NCBI GenBank assembly: GCA_022792395.1
Contig: JAAWAX010000046.1
Span: 4,513-68,512 of the forward strand
Source of the DNA: Clostridia bacterium
GTDB taxonomy: Bacteria > Bacillota > Clostridia > TANB77 > CAG-508
Direction of reading: 5' to 3'
DNA: 64,000 nucleotides
In this document: piece by piece, positions 1,013-56,589 of the stretch
How the letters are laid out: every line of letters begins with the position of its first letter
Numbering within the stretch: the stretch's first letter is position 1
Translations under genes and position numbers: made by a program
Notes under the pieces: model-generated
What the model was told of the DNA's origin: nothing
Seen by the model: only the letters and a program-made list of their open reading frames with translations
Database searches by the model: none

Positions 1013-1089
1013 AGTTTCCCCACCAGTTCCGGGTTTAAATGGGGAAATCTAATAAATTTCCCCATTTAAACCCGGAACTGGTGGGGAGA
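1013..1089. repeat. palindromic intergenic repeat, copy A (arms GTTTCCCCACCAGTTCCGGGTTTAAATGGGGA / revcomp, loop AATCTAATAAATTT)
   Basis: A perfect inverted repeat of about 32 bp visible in the sequence. The same element recurs at 7481, 8514, 21269, 52089 and 56514. It lies between convergent genes, so it likely also acts as a bidirectional terminator. Confidence 0.85.
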
Positions 1090-1121
1090 AATAAACTTGT
1101 TCTAATTTTTATTTATAAAAA

Positions 1122-2003
1122 TTAGATAATTTCTAATGTTCCCCAATTTTTTAAAATACTTTTTGGAATATTTAAGTTTCCTCTACCTATGCCTAGTTTA
1201 ATTCCTGGCTTGTTATTAGCATGGTAGTCTGTGCCACCAGATATAAGTAGATTATTTTCTTTGCAATAATTTAGTAAAAATTGAGTTTGAGAATTAGTAA
1301 AAGAATTATAATAACATTCTATACCATCTATTGGATAATTTTTTGTGAAGATTTCAAAAAATTTTATAGAATTATCACCATACATATAAATATGAGGTAT
1401 AAAAACTAAACCACCAGCACTTTTTATCAAATTAATAACTTCACTAATGGAAGGATAAAAATTAGATTTATCGATAAAAAATTTACTTTTAGAATTTGTC
1501 ATACATCTTCTGTAAAAAGTATTACTATTTTGCCAAGAATCTACATCATCAAAGAATTTTTTATTTTCGGAATTTTTAATAATTTCTTTCCAAATAACAT
1601 CGCCACAAAATTCATTATCAAAATTAATTTGTATCTTATCATAGTTAATTTTGACTCCTAATTTTTTGCATATTTGTAGCAACTGTTCATATTGATATTT
1701 ATTATCTTCAGATTCACTTTGATATATTTTAGGAAGTTTATCATTAAAAATTTCAGTGTCTATATTATAAGCTAATAATTCGACTGTTTGTCCTTCTATA
1801 GATGTATAAAGTTCACAGCCCTTGATAATTTTTCCAGAGAAGTATTGCTTTACATCTAAAGTTTTAAGTTCATTGTATCCTTCACATGTGACATGGTCTG
1901 TTATAGATAATACTTCTATGTTCGATTTTTCAGCATTTTTAAGAAGGGTTATTAGATTATCAGTACCATCTGAATAGGTAGTATGTGTATGTAAATCAAT
2001 CAT
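1122..2003 (-). CDS. PHP-domain phosphoesterase, TrpH/YciV-like (nucleotide/pAp-type phosphatase)
   Basis: N-terminal MIDLHTHTTYSDGT and C-terminal GGTDYHA are the His/Asp metal-binding motifs of the PHP fold. The length of about 290 aa matches the TrpH family. Confidence 0.7.
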   Translation of the reverse strand: MIDLHTHTTYSDGTDNLITLLKNAEKSNIEVLSITDHVTCEGYNELKTLDVKQYFSGKIIKGCELYTSIEGQTVELLAYNIDTEIFNDKLPKIYQSESEDNKYQYEQLLQICKKLGVKINYDKIQINFDNEFCGDVIWKEIIKNSENKKFFDDVDSWQNSNTFYRRCMTNSKSKFFIDKSNFYPSISEVINLIKSAGGLVFIPHIYMYGDNSIKFFEIFTKNYPIDGIECYYNSFTNSQTQFLLNYCKENNLLISGGTDYHANNKPGIKLGIGRGNLNIPKSILKNWGTLEII

Positions 2004-2147
2004 ATTGACACATCATCCTTTCGCTACAATATAAATATAATATATCATAGTAAGAAAAAAAAGGCAATTCTACATAATGTGTTGAAATTTGGTAAAAAAT
2101 GTAATATAATATTGTACAGATAATAAATAGAAAGGGCGATATAGGAA

Positions 2148-3200
2148 ATGGAAGAAAAAACTGGATTATTTGTAGATAGCTTCCCTATACTACATTCTGG
2201 ATATGAATTATGTATAAAATATGCGTTGCAACAAGTAGATAGATTAATAGTAATTGTTTATGATAATAATGAAACAAAAGTGCCATTAACAATTCGAGCT
2301 AACTGGATTAAAGAATTATATCCAAGTGTCGAAGTATTTGAATCATGGTCTACAATGGAGGGAAAAGATTTAACAGCAACAGGATTTCAAAAAAAAATTA
2401 TTGATAAAGCATTAAATGGAAGTCAATTAAACAAATTTTATTCAACACAACCAAATATGGGGCATTTAACAAATACTTTAGAGTGTAGAAATGAAATAAT
2501 AAGTAGTATAGCTGAAAAAATGAGAAAAAAGACTATGGATATTCAAGCAAATAATTATAAAAATATATCAAGAATGAGCCCAAATGTATATAAAGATTTG
2601 ATAACAAGAGTAGCATTTGTTGGAGCACAGTCTACAGGAAAATCAACAATAACAGAGGCTATTGCGAAGAAGTATAACACGGAATATATGTTTGAATATG
2701 GAAGATATCATTGGGACATTTATGAGCAAGATAGAATAGAAACATTGGAGCAAATTTTAGAGATAACACAAAGACATTTACAAATGGAAGATGAAAGAGT
2801 TATAAAAGCTAACAAATATTTATTTAGTGATACATGTCCATTTGTAACACTTAGATATGCATATGATTGGCATGGAAAAGCGAATCCAGAAATTCTAAAA
2901 TTAGCTCAAGAGGCACAGTCAAGATATGATATTATATTTTTATGTGGAGATGACATTCCTTATGCAGATACACCTGAAAGAGATGGGATTGAGCAAAGAG
3001 ATAGTTTTCAAAGACAGATAAAATATGAGTTAGTATCAAGGAAAATACCGTATATTGAACTTAATGGTTCACTGGAAAAAAGAATAGAAAAGGTAGATAC
3101 AATATTAAATCACTATGAAAAATATTCAAGTTTAAGTCAAACTATTAAGAAAATTGAACAAGAGAAAGTGAAAAAAGAAAAATTAGATATTGAGAGGTAA
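2148..3200 (+). CDS. NadR-like bifunctional protein: nucleotidyltransferase-like domain plus P-loop nucleoside-kinase (RNK/AAA_28) domain, no HTH
   Basis: Collinear with E. coli NadR residues about 60-400. FPILHSGYE corresponds to the NMNAT HxGH motif but reads H-S-G-Y. VAFVGAQSTGKST corresponds to the RNK Walker A GGESSGKST, followed by EYGR. Confidence 0.6.
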   Translation: MEEKTGLFVDSFPILHSGYELCIKYALQQVDRLIVIVYDNNETKVPLTIRANWIKELYPSVEVFESWSTMEGKDLTATGFQKKIIDKALNGSQLNKFYSTQPNMGHLTNTLECRNEIISSIAEKMRKKTMDIQANNYKNISRMSPNVYKDLITRVAFVGAQSTGKSTITEAIAKKYNTEYMFEYGRYHWDIYEQDRIETLEQILEITQRHLQMEDERVIKANKYLFSDTCPFVTLRYAYDWHGKANPEILKLAQEAQSRYDIIFLCGDDIPYADTPERDGIEQRDSFQRQIKYELVSRKIPYIELNGSLEKRIEKVDTILNHYEKYSSLSQTIKKIEQEKVKKEKLDIER

Positions 3201-3202
3201 AA

Positions 3203-4336
3203 ATGTTGGAAAAGTATGATATAGTAATTATTGGTGCAGGTATTTATGGAATGCATATTGCATTAAATAATCTTTTTCATAATAAAAAAGTATTAATAAT
3301 AGAGAAAGATAACGAAATGTTAACAAGAGCATCTTTTGTAAATCAAGCTAGACTTCATAATGGTTACCATTATCCGAGAAGTGAAATAACAGCAAGAAAT
3401 TCAGCTAGATATTTCGAAAAATTTTATAAAGATTACCAATTTGCTATCAATAAAGAGTTTAAAAGCATTTATGCTATATCTAACCACGATAGTTATACGA
3501 CCAAAAAAGAATTTGAAGAATTTTGTAACAATGTAAATATTCCATATAAAGAGATTGATAGTAGCACCTATTTTAATGAACAAGAAGTAAGTGCAACTTA
3601 TGAAACCAAAGAATATGTTTATGATATTAATTTAATTAAAAACAAATATGAAAAAGAAATATCAGAAAGAAATAATATTGATATTTATTATAATACATAT
3701 ATTGAAACTGCAAAAATACAAGGAGAGGAATATTTATTAGAATTAAGTAGTTTCGATGAAATAAAAACAAAACGTGTAATTAACACAACTTATGCAAGTG
3801 TTAATCAAGTAAATGAAATATTTAATATAAAAAAATTTGATATTAAATATGAATTAGCGGAAGTTGGAATTGGAAATGTAAGTGAGAATTTAAAAAATAC
3901 AGCAATTACAATAATGGATGGACCTTTCTTTTCAATAATGCCATTTGGAAAAACAGGAAAATATTCGATTACATCAGTTTGTCATACACCACATGAGACT
4001 TCTTATAGAGAGTTGCCAGAATTTAAGTGCCAAGAAAAAAATCTCAAATGTACTAAACAACAATTGGAAAATTGTAATAAGTGTGAATATAAGCCAAAAT
4101 CAAAAGTTGATAGCATGCTGAAATTATATAAGAAATTTGTGAAAGATGAGTATGAATTTTTATATAAAGAGAGTTTATTTGCTATAAAACCAATATTGAA
4201 AATGGCTGAAAACGATGATGCAAGACCAACGATTGTAATTAAACATAGAGAAAAGCCCGATTTTATATCTTGTTTATCAGGAAAGTTTAATACAATCTAT
4301 ATTTTAGATGAGTTTATAGAGAAAAATTTAAAATAA
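3203..4336 (+). CDS. FAD-dependent oxidoreductase, DAO/GlpO/LhgO-like
   Basis: N-terminal Rossmann GxGxxG (IVIIGAGIYG). EKDNEMLTRASFVNQARLHNGYHYP resembles the EKxDxxSGTSSRSxKLIHGGLRY motif of glycerol-3-phosphate/2-hydroxyacid oxidases. The start overlaps the upstream stop. Confidence 0.6.
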   Translation: MLEKYDIVIIGAGIYGMHIALNNLFHNKKVLIIEKDNEMLTRASFVNQARLHNGYHYPRSEITARNSARYFEKFYKDYQFAINKEFKSIYAISNHDSYTTKKEFEEFCNNVNIPYKEIDSSTYFNEQEVSATYETKEYVYDINLIKNKYEKEISERNNIDIYYNTYIETAKIQGEEYLLELSSFDEIKTKRVINTTYASVNQVNEIFNIKKFDIKYELAEVGIGNVSENLKNTAITIMDGPFFSIMPFGKTGKYSITSVCHTPHETSYRELPEFKCQEKNLKCTKQQLENCNKCEYKPKSKVDSMLKLYKKFVKDEYEFLYKESLFAIKPILKMAENDDARPTIVIKHREKPDFISCLSGKFNTIYILDEFIEKNLK

Positions 4337-4352
4337 GAGGAGAAAAAGTAAA

Positions 4353-5435
4353 ATGATTGAATGGGAAGATTTAAGTAAATTAAATAAAAAGTATTTTAAA
4401 TTATTACATAAAGATATTGATGTACTTGATAATAGTGGTCATTATTCAATGGGAGAATATGTGAAAAAATTTGAGGAAAAATGTAAACAATATTTTAATT
4501 CAAAATATGCAATAGCTTGTGGAAATTGTTTAGATGGATTAACAATTAGTTTAAGAGCTTTAAATCTTCCTAAAAATTCAGAAGTAATTGTTCCTTCTAA
4601 TACATTTTATGCAACTGTTTTAGCAATATTACGAAATAACTTAATACCCATATTTTGTGAACCTAATATAGATACTTTTAATATAGATGAAAACAAATTG
4701 GAAGAGAGGATAACAGAAAAAACAAGTGCAATTGTTTGTGTGCATTTATATGGTAAGCCTTGCAATATGAACAAAATAAATGAAATTGCCAGAAAGTATA
4801 ATATAAAGGTTGTTGAAGATTGTGCACAATCCTTTGGAGCAATTTACGAAGGAAAAAAAGTAGGAAATTTATCAGATGTAGGAGTGTTTTCGTTTTATCC
4901 AACTAAAAATTTAGGAGGTATAGGAGATGCTGGAATCATAATTACTGACAATGACAAAGTTCATAATTTCTGTGTAAAAGCTAGGAGTTATGGTGGATAT
5001 AATTATAAATATGAAGTTAATGGAATTAATAGTCGTATGGATGAAATTCAAGCAATGTTTCTGTTAAATAAATTTGAAGATATTGAGGAAATTAATAAAA
5101 GGAAAATAGAAAATGCTAATTTATATCTAAAATATATCCAGAATGAAAAAATTGTTTTGCCCAAGATAGACAATAATGAAAAGCATGTATTTTACATATT
5201 TGCTATTAGGTGCAAAGAAAGAGATAAATTGCAGAAATATTTAGAAAGAAATGAAATACAAGCATTAGTACATTATCCAATTCCATTAAATAAACAGCCT
5301 ATATTAGACATTAAAAGGAATGGATTTGAAATAGCTACAGAAATAAGTGATACAGAGTTAAGCTTGCCATGTTCAGCTATGCATACAGAGGGAGAGATAA
5401 TGAAAGTAATAAAAGTTATAAATCAATTTAGATAA
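4353..5435 (+). CDS. DegT/DnrJ/EryC1/StrS-family PLP-dependent (sugar/nucleotide) aminotransferase
   Basis: DCAQSFGA ... GNLSDVGVFSFYPTKNLG carries the PLP-lysine motif of the DegT family. The 360-aa length is typical. Confidence 0.8.
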   Translation: MIEWEDLSKLNKKYFKLLHKDIDVLDNSGHYSMGEYVKKFEEKCKQYFNSKYAIACGNCLDGLTISLRALNLPKNSEVIVPSNTFYATVLAILRNNLIPIFCEPNIDTFNIDENKLEERITEKTSAIVCVHLYGKPCNMNKINEIARKYNIKVVEDCAQSFGAIYEGKKVGNLSDVGVFSFYPTKNLGGIGDAGIIITDNDKVHNFCVKARSYGGYNYKYEVNGINSRMDEIQAMFLLNKFEDIEEINKRKIENANLYLKYIQNEKIVLPKIDNNEKHVFYIFAIRCKERDKLQKYLERNEIQALVHYPIPLNKQPILDIKRNGFEIATEISDTELSLPCSAMHTEGEIMKVIKVINQFR

Positions 5436-5450
5436 TAATTAGGAGAAAAA

Positions 5451-6500
5451 ATGAATTTATATGAATATTTAGAAAAAAATATTGATAAGGCGAAAATTCA
5501 AGAATTTAATGATGATGAATATGAAATCGCTTTAGTCAGATATGTGCTAATGCAAACTGCTAGGATTTTTTATAGAAATAGATTATTTTTTTTAGATGAG
5601 GAACAAATTAAAATTAGACATTTAATATACAATGAACAAATAGATATTAGAAATATAAATTCGTATGATATAGTTTGCTCAAGTTATTGTAGGATTTTAC
5701 AAGAAGTTTTGAAAAACAAATACACAATACAAACAGAATTATTAGAAGCGGATAGAGATGAATTTAAACATATTGTAATGAGATTGATAACTTCAAAAGG
5801 GAATAGATATTTAATTGATCCATTAATGGATTTAACAAATATGAAGACTAGAATGAAAACACATAATTTTGCAACAATTGAAAAGGATAGCAATAATCCT
5901 TATATAAGAATTCAAATTGATGGATTAAAATATATAGATGACGGAACAATTAGGAGAATTGATGAAAAAATTGGATATCTTGAAAATAATAAATATAAGG
6001 ATGATATACAAGACAAAGAAATATTAAATGCTTTAGAAAAAATACAAAATAGAAATAGAGGATTATTAATTGAATGTGGTGATATAGTTATAGCATTTTT
6101 TATGAATAGCATGAGATATTTAAAGATAGATAAAGTTAAATGGAAGAGATTGGAAAAAAATAATAAGATATTTGTAAAAAGAAAGATATTAATTAATGAA
6201 TATAAATATCTGAATGAATTAGAATTGGAAACGAATATTTTAGATCATAAGGAATTTTTAAAGATATTTAAAACAATAGAAGAAAAAGCAATAAAAAATT
6301 CTGATAATATAGGAGAATTCATAGATGTTAGTAAAAAGAGAGATAGCATTGCCATTAATTATGATAAATTATTGGAATTTAAGATTGAAAATAATTTTTT
6401 AGTTGTGTTTAATAAAACAGATTCTATTAAGACAATAATTGAATTTACAGATGAAGGAAGAAAAGTTCAATATCATACTAGTAAGTTTTTAAATGGTTAA
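5451..6500 (+). CDS. hypothetical protein (orphan, no recognisable motif)
   Basis: A long ORF with an RBS, in an operon-like arrangement with the three upstream genes. No family could be assigned by eye. Confidence 0.45.
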   Translation: MNLYEYLEKNIDKAKIQEFNDDEYEIALVRYVLMQTARIFYRNRLFFLDEEQIKIRHLIYNEQIDIRNINSYDIVCSSYCRILQEVLKNKYTIQTELLEADRDEFKHIVMRLITSKGNRYLIDPLMDLTNMKTRMKTHNFATIEKDSNNPYIRIQIDGLKYIDDGTIRRIDEKIGYLENNKYKDDIQDKEILNALEKIQNRNRGLLIECGDIVIAFFMNSMRYLKIDKVKWKRLEKNNKIFVKRKILINEYKYLNELELETNILDHKEFLKIFKTIEEKAIKNSDNIGEFIDVSKKRDSIAINYDKLLEFKIENNFLVVFNKTDSIKTIIEFTDEGRKVQYHTSKFLNG

Positions 6501-7323
6501 TTTGCATAAATTCAATAAAGGAAGAATCCCATAATTCATTTGGAATATGAGGTTCTATTTTAATATTTTCCTTTTTGGCTTTGTTTTGTACAAAGGTAAT
6601 AAAATCACAAACATAGTCTTTTCCTGTTTCATTTGTGTGAATTAGAAGGTTGCACCATTGATTATTATTGAAAAAGAAATCATGGTTAGTATAATAATTT
6701 CTCATATTTTCTAAATTATAAGTAATACTTCTCGGGGTATAAGTTAATGTATTTAAATCAAGTAAACCATATTTTGAAGAAGGGCTATCAGCAGGTAATA
6801 TTAAACTACCTGGATTAATAAATATTTTATTTTTATATAATGTGCAAAAAGCTTCATGGGTATGTGCAAATAAATAGACATCACAATTATATGCTTTGAT
6901 TAAGCTATCAAAGATATTATAACTATTGAAAAATACAGATTGCCTTGGATTATTAGGTGTTCCATGAGATAAACAAATTCTTTTATTATTTAAATTAATA
7001 ATTTCATAGTGTTTTAAAGTTTTTAAATATTCTATATTATCTTTAGTTAAAGAATTATAAGTATAAAGCAAATTTTGAAATTGTTTTACTTGATTCCAAG
7101 AATAACCATCATAGTTACAAATAGAAAGTTCACGATTTCCAGCAATTACATACTTGTATTTCTTTATCAAATTTAAAACTTCATTATTTTCAAAACCATC
7201 ACTAATGTAGTCACCTAAAAATAAAACAGTATCAATCTTTGTTACAGATAATTCATCTAATATAGTTTTTAATAATGGATAATTTGAATGTACATCAGCT
7301 ATAATAGCAATATTTTTTGACAT
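6478..7323 (-). CDS. calcineurin-like metallophosphoesterase (Icc/YfcE/ApaH-like)
   Basis: IAIIADVHSN ... LFLGDYISDG ... GNRE are the canonical MPE motifs I-III (DxH, GDxxD, GNHE-like). The 3' end overlaps the convergent gene by 23 bp. Confidence 0.75.
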   Translation of the reverse strand: MSKNIAIIADVHSNYPLLKTILDELSVTKIDTVLFLGDYISDGFENNEVLNLIKKYKYVIAGNRELSICNYDGYSWNQVKQFQNLLYTYNSLTKDNIEYLKTLKHYEIINLNNKRICLSHGTPNNPRQSVFFNSYNIFDSLIKAYNCDVYLFAHTHEAFCTLYKNKIFINPGSLILPADSPSSKYGLLDLNTLTYTPRSITYNLENMRNYYTNHDFFFNNNQWCNLLIHTNETGKDYVCDFITFVQNKAKKENIKIEPHIPNELWDSSFIEFMQINHLKTY

Positions 7324-7480
7324 ATTTTCATATTCCTTTCTGTGTTTACAATTATATTACCATGAAATGGAAAAAGAAGCAAGAAAATATAAACAAAAAC
7401 AGATGTTTATATTATAAATTAGATGAAATTTTAAAGTCAGTTAATTATAAAGGATGTATTTTTTTTGAAAATCAAGAATT

Positions 7481-7547
7481 AGTGGGTATGGTTTAAATGG
7501 GGAAATCTAATAAATTTTCCCATTTAAACCCGGAACCGGTGGGGAAA
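7481..7547. repeat. palindromic intergenic repeat, copy B (left arm degenerate; loop AATCTAATAAATTTT identical to copy A)
   Basis: GTTTAAATGGGGAAATCTAATAAATTTTCCCATTTAAACCCGGAACCGGTGGGGAAA. Shares the loop with copy A, which lies at the other end of the 1122-7323 gene block. Confidence 0.8.
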
Positions 7548-8513: not shown

Positions 8514-8631
8514 AACTGATTCCGACTTTTTTTTCACTGGTTTCCTAAATTTAAATGAGGATATACAACAAATGTCCCCATTTAATCCCAGAACCAGTGG
8601 GGAGAACTGATGAGGAAAACCGGAATCAGTT
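8514..8631. repeat. degenerate composite copy C of the palindromic repeat, with an extra outer inverted repeat (AACTGATTCCG ... CGGAATCAGTT)
   Basis: The right arm CCCCATTTAATCCCAGAACCAGTGGGGAG is nearly consensus. The left arm CACTGGTTTCCTAAATTTAAATGAGG is decayed. The outer 11-bp IR motif CGGAATCAG also follows copy D. Confidence 0.6.
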
Positions 8632-9056: not shown

Positions 9057-9063
9057 TGTTTAA

Positions 9064-9129
9064 TTGGGGACAGTTCTTTTTGCACATTTGGTGTAGTTAA
9101 CACTAATATGCAAAAAGAACTGTCCCCAA
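9064..9129. terminator. bidirectional hairpin terminator (21-bp perfect inverted repeat TTGGGGACAGTTCTTTTTGCA / TGCAAAAAGAACTGTCCCCAA)
   Basis: Seen in the sequence, between convergent genes. Confidence 0.7.
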
Positions 9130-9149
9130 TTGAATGACAAACCTAAATA

Positions 9150-11111: not shown

Positions 11112-12380
11112 ATGGATTATTTATACATACTACGAGAAGCACTTGTATGGGTAATAACCATATTTTGGTTATATCAAATCATGGTAAGTTTATGCTCATT
11201 AGTAAAAATTAAAGACAAACCATTAAAGGTAAACAAAGACCATAGATTCATGGCAATCATACCAGCACATAATGAAGAAGCTGTAGTGGGGAATTTAGTA
11301 GAAAGTTTAAAAAAGCAAAATTATAATAAAGAATTATATGATATCTATGTAATAGCAGACAATTGTACCGATGGCACAGCAAAAGTAGCAAAAGAAGCAG
11401 GAGCCATTGTATATGAAAGATTTAATAATACACAAAAAACAAAAGGATTTGCTTTAGACTGGTTCTTACAACAAAAAATCGAAGAAGAAGCTCCTTATGA
11501 TGCCTTTTTTGTATTTGATGCTGATAACATTGTAGATTCAAACTTCATTAAAAACATGAATAAAAAACTATGCCAAGGAGAAGATGTTGTACAAGGATAT
11601 AGAGATATCAAAAATCCAACCGATAGTTGGATAACTGCAGGATATGCTATTTTCTATTGGACAATGCATAGATTTTATCATTTGGCAAGATACAATTTAG
11701 GATTATCACCATTATTAAATGGAACAGGGTTTATGGTAAGATTTGATGTCGTTAAACCAGAAGGAGGACTAAAAACAGTCACTTTAACAGAGGACATTGA
11801 GTTTTCATTAAAAAGAATCATAAAAGGAAGAAAATTAGGATGGGCAACAGATGCTATTTGTTATGATGAACAACCAGTAGATTTTAAACAAAGTTGGTCA
11901 CAAAGAAGTAGATGGACAGTAGGTCACATGCAATGTATCAAAGAATATACGAAACAATTAGTAGTAGCTGCTAAAGAAAAGAAAACGATGATGAATTTTG
12001 ATGGTTTCCTATATATTGTAGGAAGTATACCAATATTTATTATTACATTAGTATTATTAGGAACAAATTTCTTGATGTATGCTGCTAATGGAATGACAGA
12101 AATGGAACTAGTTATCAATATTTTAAGATATTTAGTACCAACCTTTTTCTTACCGATTGGAACAGCAATTATTGTAATGCTATTAGATAGAAGACCAATT
12201 ACACCAATGTTAAAAGGATTAGCATGTTATCCATTATTTATGGGATCTTGGTTATTAATCAACTTTAAGTGTTTATTTAAAAGAGAAACGACATGGGAAA
12301 AAATCGAACATGTTAGAAACATCAAAATTGGTGAAACAGAAAAAACAGAAGAAACCGTAGAAATTTTAGAAAAAGTTTAA
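11112..12380 (+). CDS. processive family-2 glycosyltransferase, PgaC/IcaA-like membrane synthase
   Basis: N- and C-terminal TM segments. DxD (FDADN), YVIADNCTDG and the processive-GT2 Q-x-x-R-W motif (QRSRW). Confidence 0.7.
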   Translation: MDYLYILREALVWVITIFWLYQIMVSLCSLVKIKDKPLKVNKDHRFMAIIPAHNEEAVVGNLVESLKKQNYNKELYDIYVIADNCTDGTAKVAKEAGAIVYERFNNTQKTKGFALDWFLQQKIEEEAPYDAFFVFDADNIVDSNFIKNMNKKLCQGEDVVQGYRDIKNPTDSWITAGYAIFYWTMHRFYHLARYNLGLSPLLNGTGFMVRFDVVKPEGGLKTVTLTEDIEFSLKRIIKGRKLGWATDAICYDEQPVDFKQSWSQRSRWTVGHMQCIKEYTKQLVVAAKEKKTMMNFDGFLYIVGSIPIFIITLVLLGTNFLMYAANGMTEMELVINILRYLVPTFFLPIGTAIIVMLLDRRPITPMLKGLACYPLFMGSWLLINFKCLFKRETTWEKIEHVRNIKIGETEKTEETVEILEKV

Positions 12381-20408: not shown

Positions 20409-21269
20409 ATGAAGGTGATTTTATTGTATTATATTCAAGAAGCTGACAAGCCTAGCTTTCTCTTTAAAATATTTCATATTATAAAATTAGAAGGAAATAA
20501 GATTATACTACCCATTGATGAAAAAACAACAGAAAGTAAAAAGTTACAAAAGTTAGCACGAAAGACTAAAAGAATATTTGAAAAAACGAGAAGTAAAAAA
20601 ATAGTTTTAAGTAAAATTGTACAAAAACAAGAAGAATATGCTAATTTATTATATACTTATGGTTTGGATATTATAGAAGGGAAATGGCTATTTGAAGTGC
20701 TTTCTAATCAAGTATTAGATTATATTTTAGAGAAAAAAGAAATGAAAAAAGAAGAAACGAAAATATCAATTTTAGTAAATGATTTATCAGAAAATATGTT
20801 GGCTAATGTAAGAAAAATTGCTCAAGAATATAAATTGGTGAATATTATAACAAATCATAGAGAAAAATTTAAAAAAATAGAAGAGCAAATATTAGAAGAA
20901 GATGGCATTATGATAACAATTGGAAATAATAAACAAAAGGGTTTAGCAAAAGCAGAACTTATTTTAAATGTTGACTTTCCATCCGAATTGATAAATCTTT
21001 ATCAGATTTATGAAGAAGCAATTATCGTAAACTTAAGAGGAAATGTAAAAATAGAAAAAAAGAGATTTAATGGAATTACTATCAATGATTATGAGATAGT
21101 AGTTGAAAACGAAGAAGAGTTTGATTATGACAAAAAAACAAAATATAAGGCACATCAAATTTATGAAGCCAAAATAAATAAGCAACAACCATTTGAGCAA
21201 ATTATGAAACAAATAAAAAAAGATAAAGTAAGAATTACACAACTGATAGGAGCAAATACAAAGCTTTAG
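20409..21269 (+). CDS. hypothetical protein (occupies the position where ribF usually follows truB)
   Basis: Clean ORF with an RBS. No recognisable motif. Confidence 0.45.
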   Translation: MKVILLYYIQEADKPSFLFKIFHIIKLEGNKIILPIDEKTTESKKLQKLARKTKRIFEKTRSKKIVLSKIVQKQEEYANLLYTYGLDIIEGKWLFEVLSNQVLDYILEKKEMKKEETKISILVNDLSENMLANVRKIAQEYKLVNIITNHREKFKKIEEQILEEDGIMITIGNNKQKGLAKAELILNVDFPSELINLYQIYEEAIIVNLRGNVKIEKKRFNGITINDYEIVVENEEEFDYDKKTKYKAHQIYEAKINKQQPFEQIMKQIKKDKVRITQLIGANTKL

Positions 21270-21355
21270 AGTTTCCCCACTGGTTCCGGGTTTAAATGGG
21301 GAATTTGTCCCCATTTAAACCCGGAACCAGTGGGGAAACTCGGAATCAGTGGGGG
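21269..21355. repeat. palindromic intergenic repeat, copy D (full palindrome plus trailing CGGAATCAGTGGGGG)
   Basis: GAGTTTCCCCACTGGTTCCGGGTTTAAATGGGGA-ATTTGT-CCCCATTTAAACCCGGAACCAGTGGGGAAACT. It overlaps the stop codon of the upstream gene. Confidence 0.85.
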
Positions 21356-26212: not shown

Positions 26213-27224
26213 ATGGCAATCTTATTACCAGGAGGAGCAGGATATATAGGAAGTCACACAGCAATAGAATTATTAGAAGAAGGAAAAGAAATTGTAGTCA
26301 TAGATAATTTTTCAAACAGTAGTCCAAAAGTCCTAGAAGCAATTAAGAAAATAACAGGAAAAGATTTTAAATTTTATGAAATGGATTATATGGATAAAGA
26401 AAAGCTAGAAAAAGTATTTGAAGAAAATGAAATAGAAGCAGTTATCAATTTTGCTGGATTTAAAGCAGTAGGAGAATCGGTTCAAAAACCAATTGAATAC
26501 TATACCAATAATATTTCAGGAGCATTGGTATTATTAGATACTATGCGAAAATATAACTGTAAAAAATTTATCTTTAGTTCATCAGCAACTGTATATGGTG
26601 AACCAGAAAGAATCCCTTTAACAGAGGATTGTAGAACAGGAGGAACAACCAATCCTTATGGAACCACTAAATTGTTTATTGAACAAATTTTAAAAGATAT
26701 CTATGCATCAGACAATACATGGGATATATGCATTTTACGATATTTCAATCCAGTAGGAGCACATGAAAGTGGACTAATTGGAGAAGAACCACAAGGAATT
26801 CCTAATAATTTGATGCCATATGTGGTAAGAGTAGCAAGTGGACAATTAAAAGAATTGTCAGTATTTGGGAATGATTATGATACGCCAGATGGAACAGGTG
26901 TGAGAGATTATATTCATGTAGTAGATTTAGCAAAAGGACATTTAAAAGCATTAAATAAAATAGACAAAGAAGAAAAAGGTCTATATATTTACAATTTAGG
27001 TACAGGAACTGGATATAGTGTGTTAGATATGGTAAAAGCCTTTGAAAAGGCAACTAATAGGAAAGTAGCTTATAAAATTGCACCAAGAAGAGCAGGAGAT
27101 ATTGCAACTTGTTATGCGAATCCTCGGAAAAGCTAAAGAAGAATTAGACTGGGTAGCTACTAAAACATTAGATGATATGTGCCAAGATTCTTGGAATTAT
27201 ATTGTTACACAATCAAAGAAGTAA
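26213..27224 (+). CDS. galE: UDP-glucose 4-epimerase, reading frame interrupted by a 1-nt insertion near 27125
   Basis: N-terminal [10 protein letters not shown], YxxxK region. The ORF stops at 27136, but the conserved GalE C-terminus ([25 protein letters not shown]) continues in the +1 frame to 27224. Confidence 0.8.
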
Positions 27225-30581: not shown

Positions 30582-30815
30582 TAGTTTTCATTTACTGTGT
30601 TGAGAGTACTTAAATAGTAATTAATCGACATTGACTCTAGAGAAGATTCTTATGAAAAAGGAAACAGAAGTGATTCAAATAATTAGTAATGACATTGTTT
30701 ATGAAAACAGGATATAACCAATAATATAGCTGGAAAATGAGAAAACAAGATACACATAAAGTAAGACATAATTAATAAATGAAACATAAAACTAAAAAAA
30801 TAGAAAAAGAAAAGG

Positions 30816-30844
30816 TTGCAAAAATTAACATAAAATGGTATAAT
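30816..30844 (+). promoter_or_regulatory. promoter of the polysaccharide locus (TTGCAA-17-TATAAT) with AGGAGG RBS at 30888
   Basis: Seen in the sequence. Confidence 0.55.
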
Positions 30845-30905
30845 GATAATGTTCGAAAAAAGAGGACAAGATATCATTCTAAAAAAATAGGAGGAAATAG
30901 AGAAA

Positions 30906-31552
30906 TGTATGTTAAAGTAAAAAGAGTAACAGATACAATATTAGCTATTATTCTATTAGTCATTTTTGCAATTCCAATGTTAATCACAGCAATTGCGATA
31001 AAAGCAGAAGATGGAGGGCCTATTATTTATAAGTCAAAACGTATGGGAAAAAATTTGAAAGTATTTAATGTTTATAAATTTAGATCGATGAAAACGCACA
31101 GAAAAGAACTTGAAAGTAAATTAAACCATGAAGATATGGTTACAAAAGTAGGAAAGTTTATTAGAAAGACCAGTTTAGATGAATTACCACAATTATTTAA
31201 TATTTTAAAAGGGGAAATGAGTTTTATTGGTCCTAGACCTTGGATACCAGAGTATTATGAATGGTTTACAGAAGAACATAAAAGAAGAGCAGAAGTATTG
31301 CCAGGAATTTCTGGTTTAGCACAAGTAAAAGGAAGAAATGGAATTAGTATTTTTAAAAAGTTAGAATATGATTTAGATTATGTAAAAAATGCTAGTTTAA
31401 AACAAGATGCAAAACTATTTTTTGAAACCGTAAAAGTAGTAGTAACGGAAGCAAATGCAGAAATTACAGAGACTGGAATCAAAGAGGAAATTAATGAGTT
31501 AAAAGAAAATCATTATTTATACATAACACACCCATATAAAGAAGCTATATAA
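30906..31552 (+). CDS. undecaprenyl-phosphate sugar phosphotransferase (bacterial sugar transferase, WbaP C-terminal-domain type; initiating enzyme)
   Basis: Single TM helix followed by KRMGKNLKVFNVYKFRSM ... GPRPW. The ORF-track N-terminal extension (from 30779) lacks an RBS and is rejected. Confidence 0.8.
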
Positions 31553-31566
31553 GGGAAAGATAAAAG

Positions 31567-32760
31567 ATGAAGAAAATAATATTTTTAATACATACTTTAG
31601 GTGTTGGGGGAGCAGAGAAAGTATTAGTGAATTTAGTGAATAATATGGATGCGACTAAATATGATATTACAGTAATGACAGTAATAAATACAGGAGCTTT
31701 TATTGAAAAACTAAATCCAAATATAAAATATAGATACATGTTTAGCTTGCCGAATTTTTTTAAGGGAAAAAAATCTCAAAAGGAAAATTCGGGAAGCTTA
31801 TTGAATAAAGAAAGTATATTGAAAAGTGTACTTTCTAAATTGTATACTTTTATATGGAGACATTTACAATGTAAAAAAATATATCAAAGATATATCAAAG
31901 AAGAATATGATTATGAAGTTGCTTTTTTAGAAGGAATACCTGCTAAAATTATTTCACAATCTACGAACCAACAATCTGTTAAAATTAGTTGGATTCATGT
32001 TGATTTAATAGAAGAAACAAAAAGTGAAAAATTTTTTAGAAGTTTACAAGATGAAAATGATACTTATCAGAAGTTCAATCAAATTGTTGCTGTATCAGAA
32101 ATTGTAAGAGAACAATTTATTAAAAAGTTTTTATTTGATAAAGAAAAGGTAATTATAAAATACAATCCAAATGATGATAGGGAAATTAGAAAAAAAGCAC
32201 AAGAAACTGTTGATGATAAGAAAAATGAAAAACAGTTTTTAATTTGTACAGTAGGAAGACTAACAGCACAAAAAGGCTATGATAGATTAGTAAGAATTGC
32301 AAAAAGACTAGCAGATAACAATATAAACTACAAATTATGGATAATTGGAGTTGGTCCCAATGATGAAACCTTAAAAAAGTATGTACAAGACAATAAACTA
32401 GAGGGTAGAGTTAAATTTTTAGGATATCAAGAAAATCCATATAAATATATAAAACAAGCAGATTTATTTGTTTGTTCTTCTAGAGCAGAAGGATATAGTA
32501 CAGTAGTTTCAGAAGCATGTATTTTAGGAGTTCCTACCGTTACTACTAATTGTTCTGGAATGGAAGAGATTTTGGGGAAAGAAAATGAATATGGAAAAAT
32601 TGTAGAGAACAATGAAGAAGCTTTATATAAAGGAATTTATGAAATGATAACCAATAAACAATTATATGAAACTTATAAAAATAAAATTATGATTCAACCT
32701 GCATTTGTTCAAAATTTATCAGAATCAGTTAAACAAATAGAAGAGATTTTTAATAAATAG
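31567..32760 (+). CDS. glycosyltransferase family 4 (GT-B)
   Basis: C-terminal EGYSTVVSEACILGVPTVTTNCSGMEEIL carries the GT4 E-x7-E motif. Confidence 0.8.
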   Translation: MKKIIFLIHTLGVGGAEKVLVNLVNNMDATKYDITVMTVINTGAFIEKLNPNIKYRYMFSLPNFFKGKKSQKENSGSLLNKESILKSVLSKLYTFIWRHLQCKKIYQRYIKEEYDYEVAFLEGIPAKIISQSTNQQSVKISWIHVDLIEETKSEKFFRSLQDENDTYQKFNQIVAVSEIVREQFIKKFLFDKEKVIIKYNPNDDREIRKKAQETVDDKKNEKQFLICTVGRLTAQKGYDRLVRIAKRLADNNINYKLWIIGVGPNDETLKKYVQDNKLEGRVKFLGYQENPYKYIKQADLFVCSSRAEGYSTVVSEACILGVPTVTTNCSGMEEILGKENEYGKIVENNEEALYKGIYEMITNKQLYETYKNKIMIQPAFVQNLSESVKQIEEIFNK

Positions 32761-32768
32761 GAGAAAAA

Positions 32769-33800
32769 ATGAAAAAAGAACTTGTGAGTATAATTGTTCC
32801 TGTATATAATGGAGAAAAATATATAGAAAAATGTATTGAATCTATCAATAAGCAAACTTACAAAGAGATAGAAATAATTGTCATTAATGATGGTTCAACA
32901 GACAAAACAAAAGAAATATTAGAAGAGATTAGTATGAAACAAAAAAATATGACTATTCTTAATAAAAAAGAAAATAAAGGAACCGCAATATGTAAGAATA
33001 TAGGAATACAACATAGTAAAGGAAAGTACATTTTTTTTGTAGATTCAGATGATACTATAACGGAAGATGCGATAAACAAAATGTTAAATTTATTGAAAAA
33101 GAATAATGGAGATGCTATCAGAACAACATATAGATTTGATTATAATGGTAAAATTGTTAAGGGAAATGAAAAGATTGAAAATATAGCTTTTGCACAAAAT
33201 AGGAAAGTAGAGTTAATACAAAAATTTTTATTAGATCAAATACATGGATTTTGTTCAGGAGTTTTCTTATTAAAAAAAGATATTATCATAAAAAATAATA
33301 TAAGATTTAAAGAAGATATGACAATTATGGAGGACTTTATTTTTTTATTGGAAATCATAAAAAATAGCAATGTTATAGTCACATCAGATTTAGTAACTTT
33401 ATATTATTATCAAAACAATGCTGGATTAACAAAATCTTACCAAGATATTGAAAAAAGATGGTATAATATAAAAGTAAGATTAGATTATACCATAAAAATA
33501 ATACAAAAATATAAATCTTTAGAAAAATATCAAGAGGATAGTATTCGATATTTAGTATCCATGTATATAAAATCTACAAAATATATTTTTCTAAAAAAAG
33601 TAGATATACAAGAAGAAAGACAAAACGTAAAGAACTTAAAAAAAAATGTGAATGATTTAATAAATGGGTATCAGATAGATACTAACAAATTTAATTTGAT
33701 TTGTAAAATAATTTATTATTTTTTAAATAAAGAGAAAACAAAAAGTTTGCATATTATGTTTGGAGTTTTAGATAAAGTAGAAAGAATTAGAAATAGATAA
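32769..33800 (+). CDS. glycosyltransferase family 2 (GT-A)
   Basis: VSIIVPVYNGEKYIEKCIESINKQTYKEIEIIVINDGSTD, DSDD (DxD). Confidence 0.8.
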   Translation: MKKELVSIIVPVYNGEKYIEKCIESINKQTYKEIEIIVINDGSTDKTKEILEEISMKQKNMTILNKKENKGTAICKNIGIQHSKGKYIFFVDSDDTITEDAINKMLNLLKKNNGDAIRTTYRFDYNGKIVKGNEKIENIAFAQNRKVELIQKFLLDQIHGFCSGVFLLKKDIIIKNNIRFKEDMTIMEDFIFLLEIIKNSNVIVTSDLVTLYYYQNNAGLTKSYQDIEKRWYNIKVRLDYTIKIIQKYKSLEKYQEDSIRYLVSMYIKSTKYIFLKKVDIQEERQNVKNLKKNVNDLINGYQIDTNKFNLICKIIYYFLNKEKTKSLHIMFGVLDKVERIRNR

Positions 33801-33811
33801 GAAGGATAATC

Positions 33812-34969
33812 ATGAAAAAAGTAAAAAAAGTATTGAAATTTATTTGGGCTTCTATCATGATGATAATAGCAAATATTATCAATTTGTTTTTCGAAAAAAA
33901 AAGGAAAAAAATTTGGTTGATAGCTGAACAAAGAAACATGGCAAGAGATAATGGAATAGCCTTTTATCATTATTGCAAAGAAAATACCAATCATGAAGTT
34001 TATTATTTGATTAACAAAAAGTCAAGTGATTATAAAGGTATTAAATATAAAGATAATGTGATACAATATGGAAGCTTAAAACATTATAGATACTATTTAA
34101 AAGCTAGTATATTAATAACTTGTTTTGAAGGAACTACTTGTCCAAGTTATTTATTAGAGAAAATATTACAAAAGTATAAAATATTAAAAGCAAAACAAGT
34201 ATTTTTACAACATGGTATTATCAAAGATTATATAGAGGAATTAACCTATTTGAATTATAAACCAGATCTTTTTATTACATCGACTAAACCAGAATATGAA
34301 TATATAGCCCATCATTATGGTCATCCTAAAGGAGTAGTTCAGTTAACAGGTCTTGCTAGATATGACCATTTAGTAAATTTAAGCAATCATAATAAAGTAA
34401 AAATATTAATTATGCCAACTTGGAGAAGATGGGTTACTAATAATTTTGAAACTACAGAATTCTATAAAAATTATATAGACTTAATGAAGAGAATCCAAGA
34501 AAAATATAATTCCCAATATACTATTTTATTTTATCTACATAGTAATTTTCAAAAATATAGTTGTTATTTTCAAAAATTCAAAAATATTAAAATTTTAATG
34601 GCGAATGATTACAAAGTAGATCAATTATTAAAAGAGAGTAATTTATTAATTACAGATTATTCTAGTGTTGCTTTTGATTTTGCCTATTTGTGCAAACCAA
34701 TTATTTATTTTCAATTTGATTATGAAAAAATAAGAAAGCAACATTATCAAGAAGGTTATTTTAATTATCAAAACAATGGTTTTGGACCTATTGTATTCCA
34801 AGCAAGAGATGTTGTGAAGGAAATTGAAAAATGTGAAGATAATAAATTCAATAATTCTGAACAATATATAAATAGGATTAACCAAACTTTTACATTTAAA
34901 GATAATCATAATTGTGAAAGAATTCTAAAGAAAATTGAAGAAATCGAAGGAGAAAAATACAAATGTTAA
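33812..34969 (+). CDS. CDP-glycerol glycerophosphotransferase family protein (TagB/TagF-like)
   Basis: LITDYSSVAFDFAYLCKPIIYF matches the TagF active-site region LITDYSSVFFDY ... . Confidence 0.7.
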   Translation: MKKVKKVLKFIWASIMMIIANIINLFFEKKRKKIWLIAEQRNMARDNGIAFYHYCKENTNHEVYYLINKKSSDYKGIKYKDNVIQYGSLKHYRYYLKASILITCFEGTTCPSYLLEKILQKYKILKAKQVFLQHGIIKDYIEELTYLNYKPDLFITSTKPEYEYIAHHYGHPKGVVQLTGLARYDHLVNLSNHNKVKILIMPTWRRWVTNNFETTEFYKNYIDLMKRIQEKYNSQYTILFYLHSNFQKYSCYFQKFKNIKILMANDYKVDQLLKESNLLITDYSSVAFDFAYLCKPIIYFQFDYEKIRKQHYQEGYFNYQNNGFGPIVFQARDVVKEIEKCEDNKFNNSEQYINRINQTFTFKDNHNCERILKKIEEIEGEKYKC

Positions 34970-36069
34970 AAGCTATGATTTTAGAACTAATATTCTATAT
35001 TATAGGGTATATTATATTTATTGCATGTAATTTATTGTTATATAAAATGATAAAAAATAAAAGAGTAGCAAGATTATTAATTATAGTGTCTCTTATTCTT
35101 TATGCTGCTATTAGATATAATGTAGGTTCTGATTATGATACTTATTATAAACAATACAATAATATTGAAAATTATTTTTCTTCGGTAGAAGAAGTTGTGA
35201 CTTCAGATATACAATTTGCTTTTACATTACTTATGTTTCTTACTAAAAAATATATTATCAACGAATTTGCTATTTTTACAGTAGTAGCTATTATGATTTA
35301 TCCAACTACTGTTAATGCCATAAAAAAATATACTACTAATTTTTTAGAATCCTTGTTTTTGTATTTTTCTTTAGGATTTCATTTAGTGTCCTTAAATATA
35401 TTAAAACAAGTAATATCTATGACAATATTGTTAGAAGGATTTAAAAATATTGTTGAGAAAAAATATTTTAAGATTATCATTATGACAACTATTATGATGA
35501 TTTTTCATATATCTGCCATTATACCAATTCTAATTTTTATGATAGCGCATTTTATAAAACCGACAAATAGAAAATTGTTTATTAGTGTTATCGTGTCTAT
35601 GTTGCTATTAGTTACCTATAAAAGTTTATTAAGTATTTCTATTTTTAGTAGATATGCGATTTATTTAACAGAAATTAATAAAGATTATTTTATTGTAATA
35701 ATAGGGGCAATTGGCTATTTTATATTTAACACAATTTTATTATATATGTTATTAAGGAAGAAAGAAAAGCTAATTAAAAATAATCCACAAAATAAAATAA
35801 TTTTATCGGCTTTAATATTGTCAATTCCAATAAAAGTATTAGGAATTGATAATTTCCCTATTTATAGAATGTCTTTATATATAGACCAATTTCTAATATT
35901 TGTTATACCAGATTTATTAAAGATACAGATAGAAGAAAAAGGAATTGAAAGATATAAAAAGAATTATTTAGTATATTTTTTAATTATGATAATGTGGTTA
36001 ATTTTCTCTATTGTATTTTTAGCACATAACAATTTTTATACTTATACTACCATATTTAATATTGAGTAA
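34963..36069 (+). CDS. EpsG-family polysaccharide polymerase (Wzy-like) membrane protein
   Basis: Multi-TM protein with the EpsG signature RYNVGSDYDTY near the N-terminus. Confidence 0.65.
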   Translation: MLKAMILELIFYIIGYIIFIACNLLLYKMIKNKRVARLLIIVSLILYAAIRYNVGSDYDTYYKQYNNIENYFSSVEEVVTSDIQFAFTLLMFLTKKYIINEFAIFTVVAIMIYPTTVNAIKKYTTNFLESLFLYFSLGFHLVSLNILKQVISMTILLEGFKNIVEKKYFKIIIMTTIMMIFHISAIIPILIFMIAHFIKPTNRKLFISVIVSMLLLVTYKSLLSISIFSRYAIYLTEINKDYFIVIIGAIGYFIFNTILLYMLLRKKEKLIKNNPQNKIILSALILSIPIKVLGIDNFPIYRMSLYIDQFLIFVIPDLLKIQIEEKGIERYKKNYLVYFLIMIMWLIFSIVFLAHNNFYTYTTIFNIE

Positions 36070-36082
36070 CAGGAGAGAATAA

Positions 36083-37618: not shown

Positions 37619-37651
37619 ATATACAAATAAAAAAATTAATGAGGAGATAAA

Positions 37652-52088: not shown

Positions 52089-52120
52089 GTTTCCCCACTG
52101 GTTCCGGGTTTAAATGGGGA
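52089..52120. repeat. palindromic repeat family, half copy E (left arm only)
   Basis: GTTTCCCCACTGGTTCCGGGTTTAAATGGGGA sits directly after the whiA stop. Confidence 0.75.
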
Positions 52121-56513: not shown

Positions 56514-56589
56514 ATTCCCCACTAGTTCCGGGTTTAAATGGGGATAGTTATTTGAACTATCCCCATTTAAACCCGGAACTAGTGGGGAA
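56514..56589. repeat. palindromic intergenic repeat, copy F (perfect; the loop itself is palindromic)
   Basis: TTCCCCACTAGTTCCGGGTTTAAATGGGGATAGTTATTTGAACTATCCCCATTTAAACCCGGAACTAGTGGGGAA lies between convergent eno and the vWA gene. Confidence 0.85.

Follow-up and report, generated by a model that had tools for sequence, protein, structure and literature searches.

A co-inherited six-gene cassette of gut Clostridia and a tentative route to an aminated nucleotide-linked sugar

A cassette of six genes was analyzed in a 64,000-nucleotide stretch of DNA from a Clostridia bacterium (contig JAAWAX010000046.1), referred to here as the window. The six genes encode a PHP phosphoesterase, a NadR-like two-domain protein, a DAO-family flavoprotein dependent on flavin adenine dinucleotide (FAD), a DegT/DnrJ/EryC1 aminotransferase dependent on pyridoxal phosphate (PLP), an orphan protein, and a calcineurin-like metallophosphoesterase (MPE). 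They form one co-inherited functional unit. Our favored reading of this unit, which we put a little short of an even bet, is that it replaces a secondary hydroxyl with an amine on a sugar linked to phosphate or to a nucleotide and then processes the product. Candidates for the sugar are ribose, within a nucleoside or nucleotide akin to nicotinamide riboside, and a nucleoside diphosphate (NDP)-hexose. The cassette is laid out as follows.

1122-2003, minus strand: PHP phosphoesterase, TrpH/YciV-like, 293 amino acids, divergent from the operon (Pfam PHP, 41.7 bits)
2004-2147, no strand: divergent intergenic region of 144 bp, PHP to NadR-like gene, with a sigma-70-like site, TTGAAA-17-TATAAT, at 2082-2110 on the plus strand
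2148-3200, plus strand: NadR-like two-domain protein, 350 amino acids (AAA_28, 97.9 bits, cut-off 27; TIGR01526 nadR_NMN_Atrans, E = 3.5e-26)
3203-4336, plus strand: DAO-family FAD-dependent dehydrogenase, 377 amino acids (PF01266, 35.2 bits, cut-off 27.9)
4353-5435, plus strand: DegT/DnrJ/EryC1 PLP aminotransferase, 360 amino acids (PF01041, 323.9 bits)
5451-6500, plus strand: orphan, founder of a small family, 349 amino acids (no match in Pfam, NCBIfam, PHROG, or PADLOC)
6478-7323, minus strand: calcineurin-like MPE, 281 amino acids (Metallophos_2, 65.2 bits)

All six open reading frames named in the original prediction were present, and its domain assignments were upheld by hidden Markov model searches, in which the orphan had no Pfam or NCBIfam match. 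The four plus-strand genes show operon-like spacing, with gaps of 2, 16, and 15 nt, so that the DAO gene starts 2 nt past the NadR-like stop codon. The MPE and orphan genes are convergent and share 23 nt at their 3' ends. Searches against Rfam gave no element in the divergent region at 2004-2147; the only matches were spurious microRNA-hairpin matches on the palindromes described below. A terminator scan detected no terminators. GC content in the cassette is 0.22-0.29 compared to 0.27-0.32, only a slight drop. Housekeeping genes surround the cassette in the window, and upstream the contig carries spore genes, including SpoIVB and SpoVG.

The strongest evidence that the genes belong together is their recurrence. 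The same layout, with a divergent PHP gene, then NadR-like, DAO, DegT, and orphan genes, and a convergent MPE gene, was found in four other lineages, which answers the check on co-inheritance that the original prediction had proposed. All six genes occur in equal order and orientation at loci L012/L013 and L015. Five are present at L014, where the contig starts with the NadR-like gene, and four intact genes plus a NadR-like remnant (residues 248-332) are at L009, with PHP gone. Identity to the window proteins is 69-72% for PHP (L012 and L015), 60-66% for NadR-like, 62-65% for DAO, 69-72% for DegT, 41-55% for the orphan, and 59-61% for MPE, the convergent arrangement of which is kept in L009, L012, L014, and L015. 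Where the flanks can be read (the window, L012/L013, which adjoin cotJABC, and L009), they differ. Because the layout is kept at 41-72% identity while the flanks differ, adjacency by chance can be set aside. These identities also argue against the five loci being one recently transferred segment.

The cassette-type NadR-like protein (about 15 clusters) and the orphan (about 10 clusters) are rare among 5.8 billion, and at every locus examined both were inside the cassette. Every domain family is common by itself, and the repeat copies on either side of the genes are dispersed and carry no information on function, as would be expected if six unrelated housekeeping genes simply lay between copies of a common repeat. 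The conserved order and orientation in four other lineages, the differing readable flanks, and the restriction of the NadR-like and orphan subfamilies to the cassette make this explanation exceedingly improbable. The carriers are a few uncultured gut Clostridia, and the window matches mouse-gut-type Clostridia metagenome-assembled genomes (MAGs), such as GCA_948661065.1.

Two observations concern the state of the cassette in individual genomes. At L009 (1-9963), the end of a prophage coincides exactly with the point of truncation of the NadR-like gene, of which residues 248-332 are left. This prophage carries baseplate and tail-fiber genes, a holin, and an endolysin, with the lysis cassette directly before the NadR-like remnant, and a reverse transcriptase beside the tail fiber is possibly part of a diversity-generating retroelement. 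The L009 cassette seems to have been disrupted by the phage or to be located at its attachment site. In three same-species MAGs (L098, L099, and L102), the DAO, DegT, and MPE genes are in fragments. Since the essential gene asd is also frameshifted, being split in L099, indel errors in AT-rich homopolymers are the probable cause of the fragments, rather than decay of the cassette.

From the protein families, their motifs, the co-inheritance, and two partner contexts, we infer the chemical steps, the modified position, and the order of steps. The P-loop kinase of the NadR-like protein would phosphorylate a riboside or sugar, and its diverged HIGH domain would nucleotidylate the product or only bind it. 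The DAO flavoprotein would then make a ketone by dehydrogenating a sugar CH-OH, with C-3/C-3' as the most likely position, and the QdtB-like DegT would transaminate this ketone to an amine. Via an acyl-enzyme, the Cys-His-Asp orphan would form or cleave an amide at the new amine. Finally, the TrpH-like PHP protein and the Ap4A-hydrolase-like MPE would strip phosphate or nucleotide groups for release, recycling, or detoxification.

The flavoprotein has an invariant NQARxHNGYHYPRS motif, and G11, G13, and G16 of its GxGxxG FAD fold are invariant. A four-Cys insert (C276, C283, C291, and C294) is specific to one subfamily. The AlphaFold model (predicted local distance difference test, pLDDT, 90) matched glycine oxidase, L-2-hydroxyglutarate dehydrogenase (L2HGDH), and GlpD in Foldseek with E values of about 1e-17. 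Identity to the structures of GlpD, GlpO, L2HGDH, and glycine oxidase is 12-16%. Among curated families and solved structures, the flavoprotein is nearest to alcohol dehydrogenases of the GlpO/GlpD and L-2-hydroxyglutarate type. The original prediction had called this protein an FAD oxidase. Its FAD-binding DAO fold is upheld, but dehydrogenase is the better term, as the hosts are anaerobic Clostridia.

More than 6,000 homologs of the flavoprotein were detected, a large uncharacterized family with many members in glycan loci. Relatives at 47-50% identity, among them Paenibacillus and Ignavibacteriales proteins, and those on proteobacterial plasmids, at 28-33%, have a PgfS/ArnC-like polyprenyl-phosphate GT2 nearby, accompanied by a short-chain dehydrogenase/reductase (SDR), a TIM-barrel protein, small SMR/EamA-type (flippase-like) proteins, and a large membrane protein. 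Judged from gene content, the pairing of DAO with SDR would be an oxidise-then-reduce arrangement, that is, an epimerization. In the cassette and in three other layouts (L008; L010/L011; L103), the partner is DegT instead, and in L010 and L103 both DAO and DegT are 53-55% identical to those of the window. These two alternative partners, DegT or a reductase, are the best evidence that the flavoprotein likely makes a keto-sugar, and they back the oxidation-then-transamination logic of the original prediction.

The sister clusters at L010 (7381-17758) and L103 (33-8709) contain an APH/CotS-like kinase, a PF03407 GT-A nucleotide-sugar transferase, two S-adenosylmethionine (SAM) methyltransferases, a Na/alanine symporter, an MFS transporter, and a GNAT acetyltransferase, with a HAD phosphatase in L010. 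One of the methyltransferases is long and KsgA/Erm-like (368-377 amino acids), and L010 has a QueC-YhhQ fusion upstream. In content, resistance-like genes included, these loci are reminiscent of small clusters that make an N-methylated amino-sugar metabolite. The roles of the cassette (kinase, transferase, oxidase, aminotransferase, and phosphatase) are filled there by unrelated proteins, which supports the pathway reading. Another arrangement was seen on the 10.8-kb Psychrobacter plasmid pA22P4 (NZ_MN657058.1; L104, 2336-8624), with an SDR, a TIM-barrel protein, an SMR transporter, a DAO-family flavoprotein, a GT2, and a 479-amino-acid hypothetical protein. By analogy, it looks like a portable glycan-modification system, which may epimerize a sugar on its carrier by DprE1/DprE2-like logic via unrelated enzymes.

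The aminotransferase keeps its catalytic Lys in the motif FSFYPTKNLG, which aligns with FSFYPAKNLG of QdtB. Its PDB matches are 7n63 (1e-98), 5u1z, which we take to be WlaRG, 3frk (QdtB), 2oga, which is presumably DesV, WbpE, and NtdA. By eye, the alignments show about half of its residues in common with 7n63 and a slightly smaller share with WlaRG and QdtB. The best solved relatives are sugar C-3 aminotransferases, and this kinship points to C-3 as the probable position. It would favor the novel nucleotide-sugar option of the original prediction at least as much as the aminonucleoside one.

The DegT kinship raises the possibility that the cassette supplies a glycan precursor. DAO and DegT would make an NDP-3-amino-3-deoxy-hexose of the kanosamine/Qui3N type, the orphan would N-acylate it, and the product would enter a cell-wall, capsule, or spore glycan through assembly enzymes encoded elsewhere. 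About half of the DegT residues are shared with dTDP-3-keto-hexose C-3 aminotransferases, more distant DAO homologs lie in polysaccharide loci beside PgfS/ArnC-like GT2 genes, the window has a Wzy-type locus at about 30.8-39.2 kb and a GT2 gene at 11112-12380, and the cassette adjoins cotJABC in L012. However, genes for a glycosyltransferase, a flippase, RmlA/B-type enzymes, or an isomerase are missing from the cassette, and it is outside glycan loci wherever the flanks are readable (the window, L009, and L012/L013). A nicotinamide-riboside-kinase-like NadR and two nucleotide phosphoesterases are foreign to known NDP-sugar pathways, and the cassette is much rarer than is usual for surface-glycan genes. 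We consider precursor supply unlikely.

The resemblance of the flavoprotein to glycerol-3-phosphate enzymes suggests a different substrate. The flavoprotein would oxidize glycerol-3-phosphate to dihydroxyacetone phosphate (DHAP), DegT would turn this into serinol phosphate, and the HIGH domain, which is similar to TagD and LicC, would activate it as an NDP-amino-alcohol head group. The best curated match of the flavoprotein is type-2 glycerol-3-phosphate oxidase (NF033460), and its highest Foldseek TM-score is with GlpD. The sister clusters have methyltransferases and an APH/choline-kinase-like kinase, a TagF-like glycerophosphotransferase gene is present in the window at 33812-34969, and a precedent for the transamination exists in Cj1437 of Campylobacter, a PLP-dependent DHAP-to-serinol-phosphate transaminase. 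The match to the oxidase model is very weak, though, at 42.8 bits against a cut-off of 460, so the GlpO equivalog level is not reached, and identity to solved GlpO and GlpD is 12-15%. DegT is far closer to NDP-hexose enzymes, and the kinase domain is of the nucleoside-kinase type. An amino-alcohol product is, therefore, highly unlikely.

The NadR-like protein joins an N-terminal HIGH-type nucleotidyltransferase domain to a C-terminal AAA_28 P-loop domain that resembles ribosylnicotinamide kinase. Its Walker A motif, GAQSTGKST, and its kinase core are invariant (alignment A3). In the nucleotidyltransferase domain of the window protein, HSGY replaces HxGH, which most cassette homologs retain, and PF01467 did not match the window protein. 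The TIGR01526 score, 92.2 bits against a cut-off of 341, is below the equivalog level. PHROG "nicotinamide-nucleotide adenylyltransferase" matched at 9e-37, and the PDB NadR matches are 1lw7, 8x7f, 6gye, and 9x6f. The proteins closest to it, at about 40-44% identity, are of the NadR type but have no helix-turn-helix (HTH) domain, and relatives at about 40% identity (78/80 genome loci fetched) were never found with DAO or DegT. In L060 (Clostridium frigoris), the sole neighborhood of a relative that was inspected, the NadR-type gene and the end of a PnuC-like transporter gene overlap, as one would expect of genes for nicotinamide-riboside salvage. No PnuC gene was present at any cassette locus. 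The NadR-like protein is probably a cassette-specific offshoot of the PnuC-linked nicotinamide-riboside kinase/nicotinamide mononucleotide (NMN) adenylyltransferases, and this kinship points to a likely riboside substrate.

Both phosphoesterases also appear to be nucleotide enzymes. The PHP protein matched two models over its full length but weakly: RNase RNM (79.5 bits, cut-off 375, E = 2.4e-22) and 3',5'-nucleoside bisphosphate phosphatase (pAp; 73.3 bits, cut-off 400, E = 1.7e-20). Its PDB relatives are 3e0f, 9etk, 7ug9 (deposited as a 5'-3' exoribonuclease), and 2yb1, which we take to be the Cv1693 pAp phosphatase. The best PDB match of the MPE is 3qfm, presumably the SapH Ap4A hydrolase. 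Thus, the best solved relatives of both proteins are nucleotide phosphoesterases.

The orphan had no sequence-level match in the PDB. Its N-terminal domain appears to be transglutaminase/arylamine-N-acyltransferase (NAT)-like, with C76, H107, and D123/D127, and the C-terminal part is beta-rich. Among 84 divergent members, C76 is invariant, and H107 and D127 are near-invariant. In the AlphaFold model, a helix starts at C76 and is followed by strands bearing the His and Asp. The window protein does not have the approximately 80-amino-acid central insert (columns ~187-282 of alignment A1) of the other cassette homologs (395-443 amino acids), and it retains the conserved Cys, His, and Asp and the beta-rich C-terminal part. 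The orphan looks like an acyl-enzyme catalyst, and a transglutaminase/NAT-like Cys-His-Asp protein suggests an extra step in which an amide is formed or cleaved. In the 90% database the family has 10 clusters, and the 50% library contains 173 representatives of it. The JGI metagenomes held only the window's own sequence.

Relatives of the orphan outside the cassette keep different company. At L095-L097, at 36-44% identity, the genes encode a WG-repeat protein, a radical-SAM protein, an alpha/beta hydrolase, the orphan relative, a phosphoribosyltransferase (PRTase)-like protein, a gp30.3-like protein, and in some cases a HIT-like protein. The radical-SAM protein (421 amino acids) has a CxxxCxxC motif, and its only curated match is viperin (1.8e-6; PADLOC pVip, 2.3e-8). 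The PRTase-like match is weak and under the Pfam cut-off; a weak PRTase-like domain, likewise below threshold, also occurs fused to a member of the orphan family. In one example, the candidate defense gene PDC-S01 adjoins the set. A further orphan relative is fused to a zeta-toxin kinase (Pfam, 2.4e-31), with a GT2, a distant MPE, an alpha/beta hydrolase, and a WG-repeat protein nearby. These second cassettes of the orphan family (L095, 6912-13059; L097, 7288-13597; L106, 744-6438) combine a WG-repeat protein, an alpha/beta hydrolase, and the orphan relative with a variable partner, and they look like an undescribed nucleotide-centered conflict system. Viperins and zeta/AvrRxo1 kinases act at the 3'/3 position of nucleotide-linked sugars. 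The viperin-like and zeta-toxin contexts, therefore, indicate that the orphan family repeatedly accompanies enzymes modifying nucleotide-linked sugars, and the 3'/3 position may be what these partners share, by analogy and association, with the C-3-type DegT.

These contexts are the reason to consider that the six-gene cassette is itself a conflict system. It would make a toxic 3-position-modified nucleotide or nucleotide-sugar analog, such as a chain terminator with a 3'-amino group or a 3-amino UDP-sugar, against phage or competitors, and the phosphoesterases would serve as self-protection or an off-switch. The other contexts of the orphan family are nucleotide-centered and defense-like, both in the viperin-like set beside PDC-S01 and in the fusion to a zeta-toxin kinase beside a GT2 and a metallophosphoesterase, and the 3-position chemistry of viperin and zeta/AvrRxo1 fits a C-3-type DegT. 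Also, the cassette is rare and patchy, occurs in varied contexts, and abuts a prophage end in L009. The link is, however, one of association through a single protein family, and the viperin-like matches are weak. PADLOC 2.0 gave only generic P-loop matches for the NadR-like protein (AriA, LeoA, and others, E >= 2e-6) and none for the other five proteins. Orphan homologs were absent from phage, plasmid, and viral-contig collections, and the window cassette is among housekeeping genes and not in a defense island. A conflict role is, on balance, not likely. Rather unlikely as well is a chemical conflict module in which a 3'/3-aminated analog acts as a chain terminator or an inhibitor of cell-wall precursors, and in which the orphan family is the shared partner of three kinds of 3-position-modifying enzymes. 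Such a module would parallel viperin, which yields 3'-deoxy-3',4'-didehydro-NTP, and zeta/AvrRxo1, which carry out 3'-phosphorylation, with PHP and MPE as a possible off-switch or immunity.

Amination of a phosphate- or nucleotide-linked sugar thus remains the reading that we prefer, and several results weigh against it. The second NMN adenylyltransferase motif of the NadR-like protein, ISxTxxR, has decayed throughout the cassette subfamily to a pattern like ..K.T..IQ. (alignment A3), and NadR-type relatives at about 40% identity keep ISATxIR. With an intact kinase core and decayed motifs, the kinase probably still works and the nucleotidyltransferase may have changed or disappeared, so the adenylyltransferase step may be missing from the pathway. 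The kinship of DegT to enzymes of 1-linked dTDP-hexoses would not fit neatly with a 5'-linked ribosyl substrate of the nicotinamide-riboside type. DAO-fold enzymes also include amine oxidases. The model of the orphan is of only moderate confidence (pLDDT 66.6). None of the six proteins reaches an NCBIfam equivalog cut-off. Last, the cassette contains no transporter, regulator, glycosyltransferase, or riboswitch, and the destination of the product is unmarked.

The original prediction also described the genes as an island bracketed by two palindromic repeats with an identical loop. The two copies are as follows.

1017-1087, no strand: palindromic repeat copy A, with 35-nt arms that are 97% complementary and the center AATCTAATAAATT, between the gene for a 527-amino-acid protein and the PHP 3' end
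7481-7547, no strand: palindromic repeat copy B, partial, with the same center AATCTAATAAATT as copy A and a degenerate outer left arm

Both copies are real and share their center, but copy B is partial and the family is dispersed. Copy A forms a near-perfect hairpin with a free energy of -63.8 kcal/mol (z = -12 compared to shuffles); in copy B, about 17 inner base pairs are left (-25 kcal/mol). A 41-nt core pattern matched copies A and B only, with a chance expectation of 0. The family is REP-like (repetitive extragenic palindromic), with the arm sequence TTCCCCACYAGTTCCGGGTTTAAATGGGGA and at least six intergenic copies or fragments within the window. Besides A and B, these include two full copies (21269-21341 and 56515-56589), half of a copy (about 52104-52120), and a degenerate one (about 8550-8600). 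A further copy is at L001 6126-6190, directly upstream of the gene for the 527-amino-acid protein. The centers of the other copies all differ, so that AATCTAATAAATT is common to A and B alone among the copies examined, and a local duplication could explain it. No repeat copies were found near the homologous cassettes in L009 and L012-L015, which was the result of checking for repeat flanking in other genomes. There was also no integrase in or beside the cassette and no empty site: all seven same-species contigs, found via the neighboring CDF transporter gene, have the cassette at the same site. Since the family is dispersed and missing around the cassette in other lineages, the repeat does not define an island, and the repeats were rejected as island boundaries, with copies of other centers across the window and upstream and none flanking the cassette elsewhere. 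The palindromic repeats are ordinary dispersed intergenic elements outside the mechanism; such dispersed palindromes could be terminators, REP elements, or miniature inverted-repeat transposable elements (MITEs). A separate palindrome with 30-nt arms is present at 9059-9134.

Directly upstream of the cassette, between two repeat copies, is the gene for the 527-amino-acid protein (L001 6217-7800; its 3' part is at 142-1002 of the window). The protein is very acidic, Lys/Glu-rich, and without a family match, and in one MAG it is in pieces of 171 and 348 amino acids. Downstream, the GT2 gene at 11112-12380 was rejected as a cassette partner, as its adjacency to the cassette is not kept in other lineages. 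The Wzy-type polysaccharide locus (30779-39169) encodes a Bac_transf initiating sugar transferase, GT1, GT2, an EpsG polymerase, and a Wzx flippase. It also holds the gene for the TagF-like protein, a CDP-glycerol glycerophosphotransferase, and a gene for an NAD-dependent epimerase/dehydratase is upstream of it (26213-27136).

If the amination reading is true, the cassette would provide a DAO-fold flavin route to keto- and amino-sugars or aminonucleotides, beside the known NAD-dependent ones. It would give a first function to an uncharacterized flavoprotein family with more than 6,000 detectable homologs. It would also introduce a new transglutaminase-like family whose recurrent partners modify nucleotides, namely a viperin-like radical-SAM protein, a zeta-toxin kinase, and a NadR-like kinase. 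Should gut Clostridia be making a bioactive nucleotide analog in this way, it could matter for phage defense, microbial competition, and host interaction.

The original prediction did not recognize the gene combination as a described system, and neither PADLOC nor literature searches returned a known system that matches it. The nearest pathways in terms of chemistry are the kanosamine routes (RifL/RifK/RifM/RifN, NtdC/NtdA/NtdB, and KabABC), which share with the cassette a C-3 oxidation and a transamination, then a phosphatase and a kinase. RifL, RifK, RifM, and RifN convert UDP-glucose to UDP-3-keto-glucose, UDP-kanosamine, kanosamine, and its 6-phosphate. NtdA (E = 4e-49) and 7kz3, a chain of about 445 amino acids that we take to be KabA (7e-45), are detectable homologs of the window DegT. 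The oxidant in these routes is an NAD-dependent Gfo/Idh/MocA enzyme and the phosphatase is of the HAD type, whereas the cassette has a DAO-fold flavoprotein and PHP and calcineurin-like enzymes. In addition, the kanosamine kinase is not NadR-like and there is no transglutaminase-like protein in these routes, while the cassette has a NadR-like kinase and a putative protein of that type.

The dTDP-Qui3NAc/Fuc3NAc pathways (QdtA/B/C and WlaRG) contain the C-3 aminotransferases closest to the cassette DegT, and an N-acyltransferase follows the aminotransferase, as proposed for the orphan. In those pathways, the 3-keto sugar is made via RmlA, RmlB, and a 3,4-ketoisomerase, none of which is in the cassette, and the acyltransferase has a left-handed beta-helix fold in contrast to the Cys-His-Asp transglutaminase-like orphan. 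The aminonucleoside pathways can be compared by chemical logic only. Pur10/Pur4 produce 3'-amino-3'-deoxy-ATP in puromycin biosynthesis, and PumI/PumG act with amide ligases in the pseudouridimycin pathway. Both oxidize a hydroxyl on the sugar of a nucleoside or nucleotide, transaminate, and place an amide at the new amine, as the cassette would, with accessory kinases and phosphatases. Their oxidoreductases and amide-forming enzymes are from other families than those of the cassette, and they are found in actinomycete hosts within full biosynthetic gene clusters that include resistance and export genes.

The two-domain architecture of the cassette protein is also that of NadR, which works with PnuC to salvage nicotinamide riboside. 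The cassette protein differs from NadR in that it has no PnuC neighbor, no HTH domain, and a decayed ISxTxxR motif, in the H-to-Y change of HxGH in the window copy, and in always occurring with DAO and DegT. DprE1 has a different flavoprotein fold (FAD_binding_4), and in DprE1/DprE2 epimerization the ketone is reduced, while in the cassette it would be aminated. Distant DAO members found with an SDR, a polyprenyl-phosphate GT2, and a small SMR/EamA-type transporter imply flavin oxidation of a phosphate-linked sugar to a ketone, which likens them to DprE1/DprE2-type epimerization of polyprenyl-phosphate sugars and to the three-component glycosylation systems (Kelly et al. 2024), as PMC11194591 describes them. 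Because the cassette has no membrane proteins, its carrier is presumably a nucleotide. The chemical logic of the cassette is known from RifKLMN, NtdABC, QdtB-type enzymes, Pur10/Pur4, and PumI/PumG, but the enzyme set is not. This set is new in its DAO-fold oxidant, its NadR offshoot, its PHP and calcineurin-like phosphoesterases, and its putative new transglutaminase-like family.

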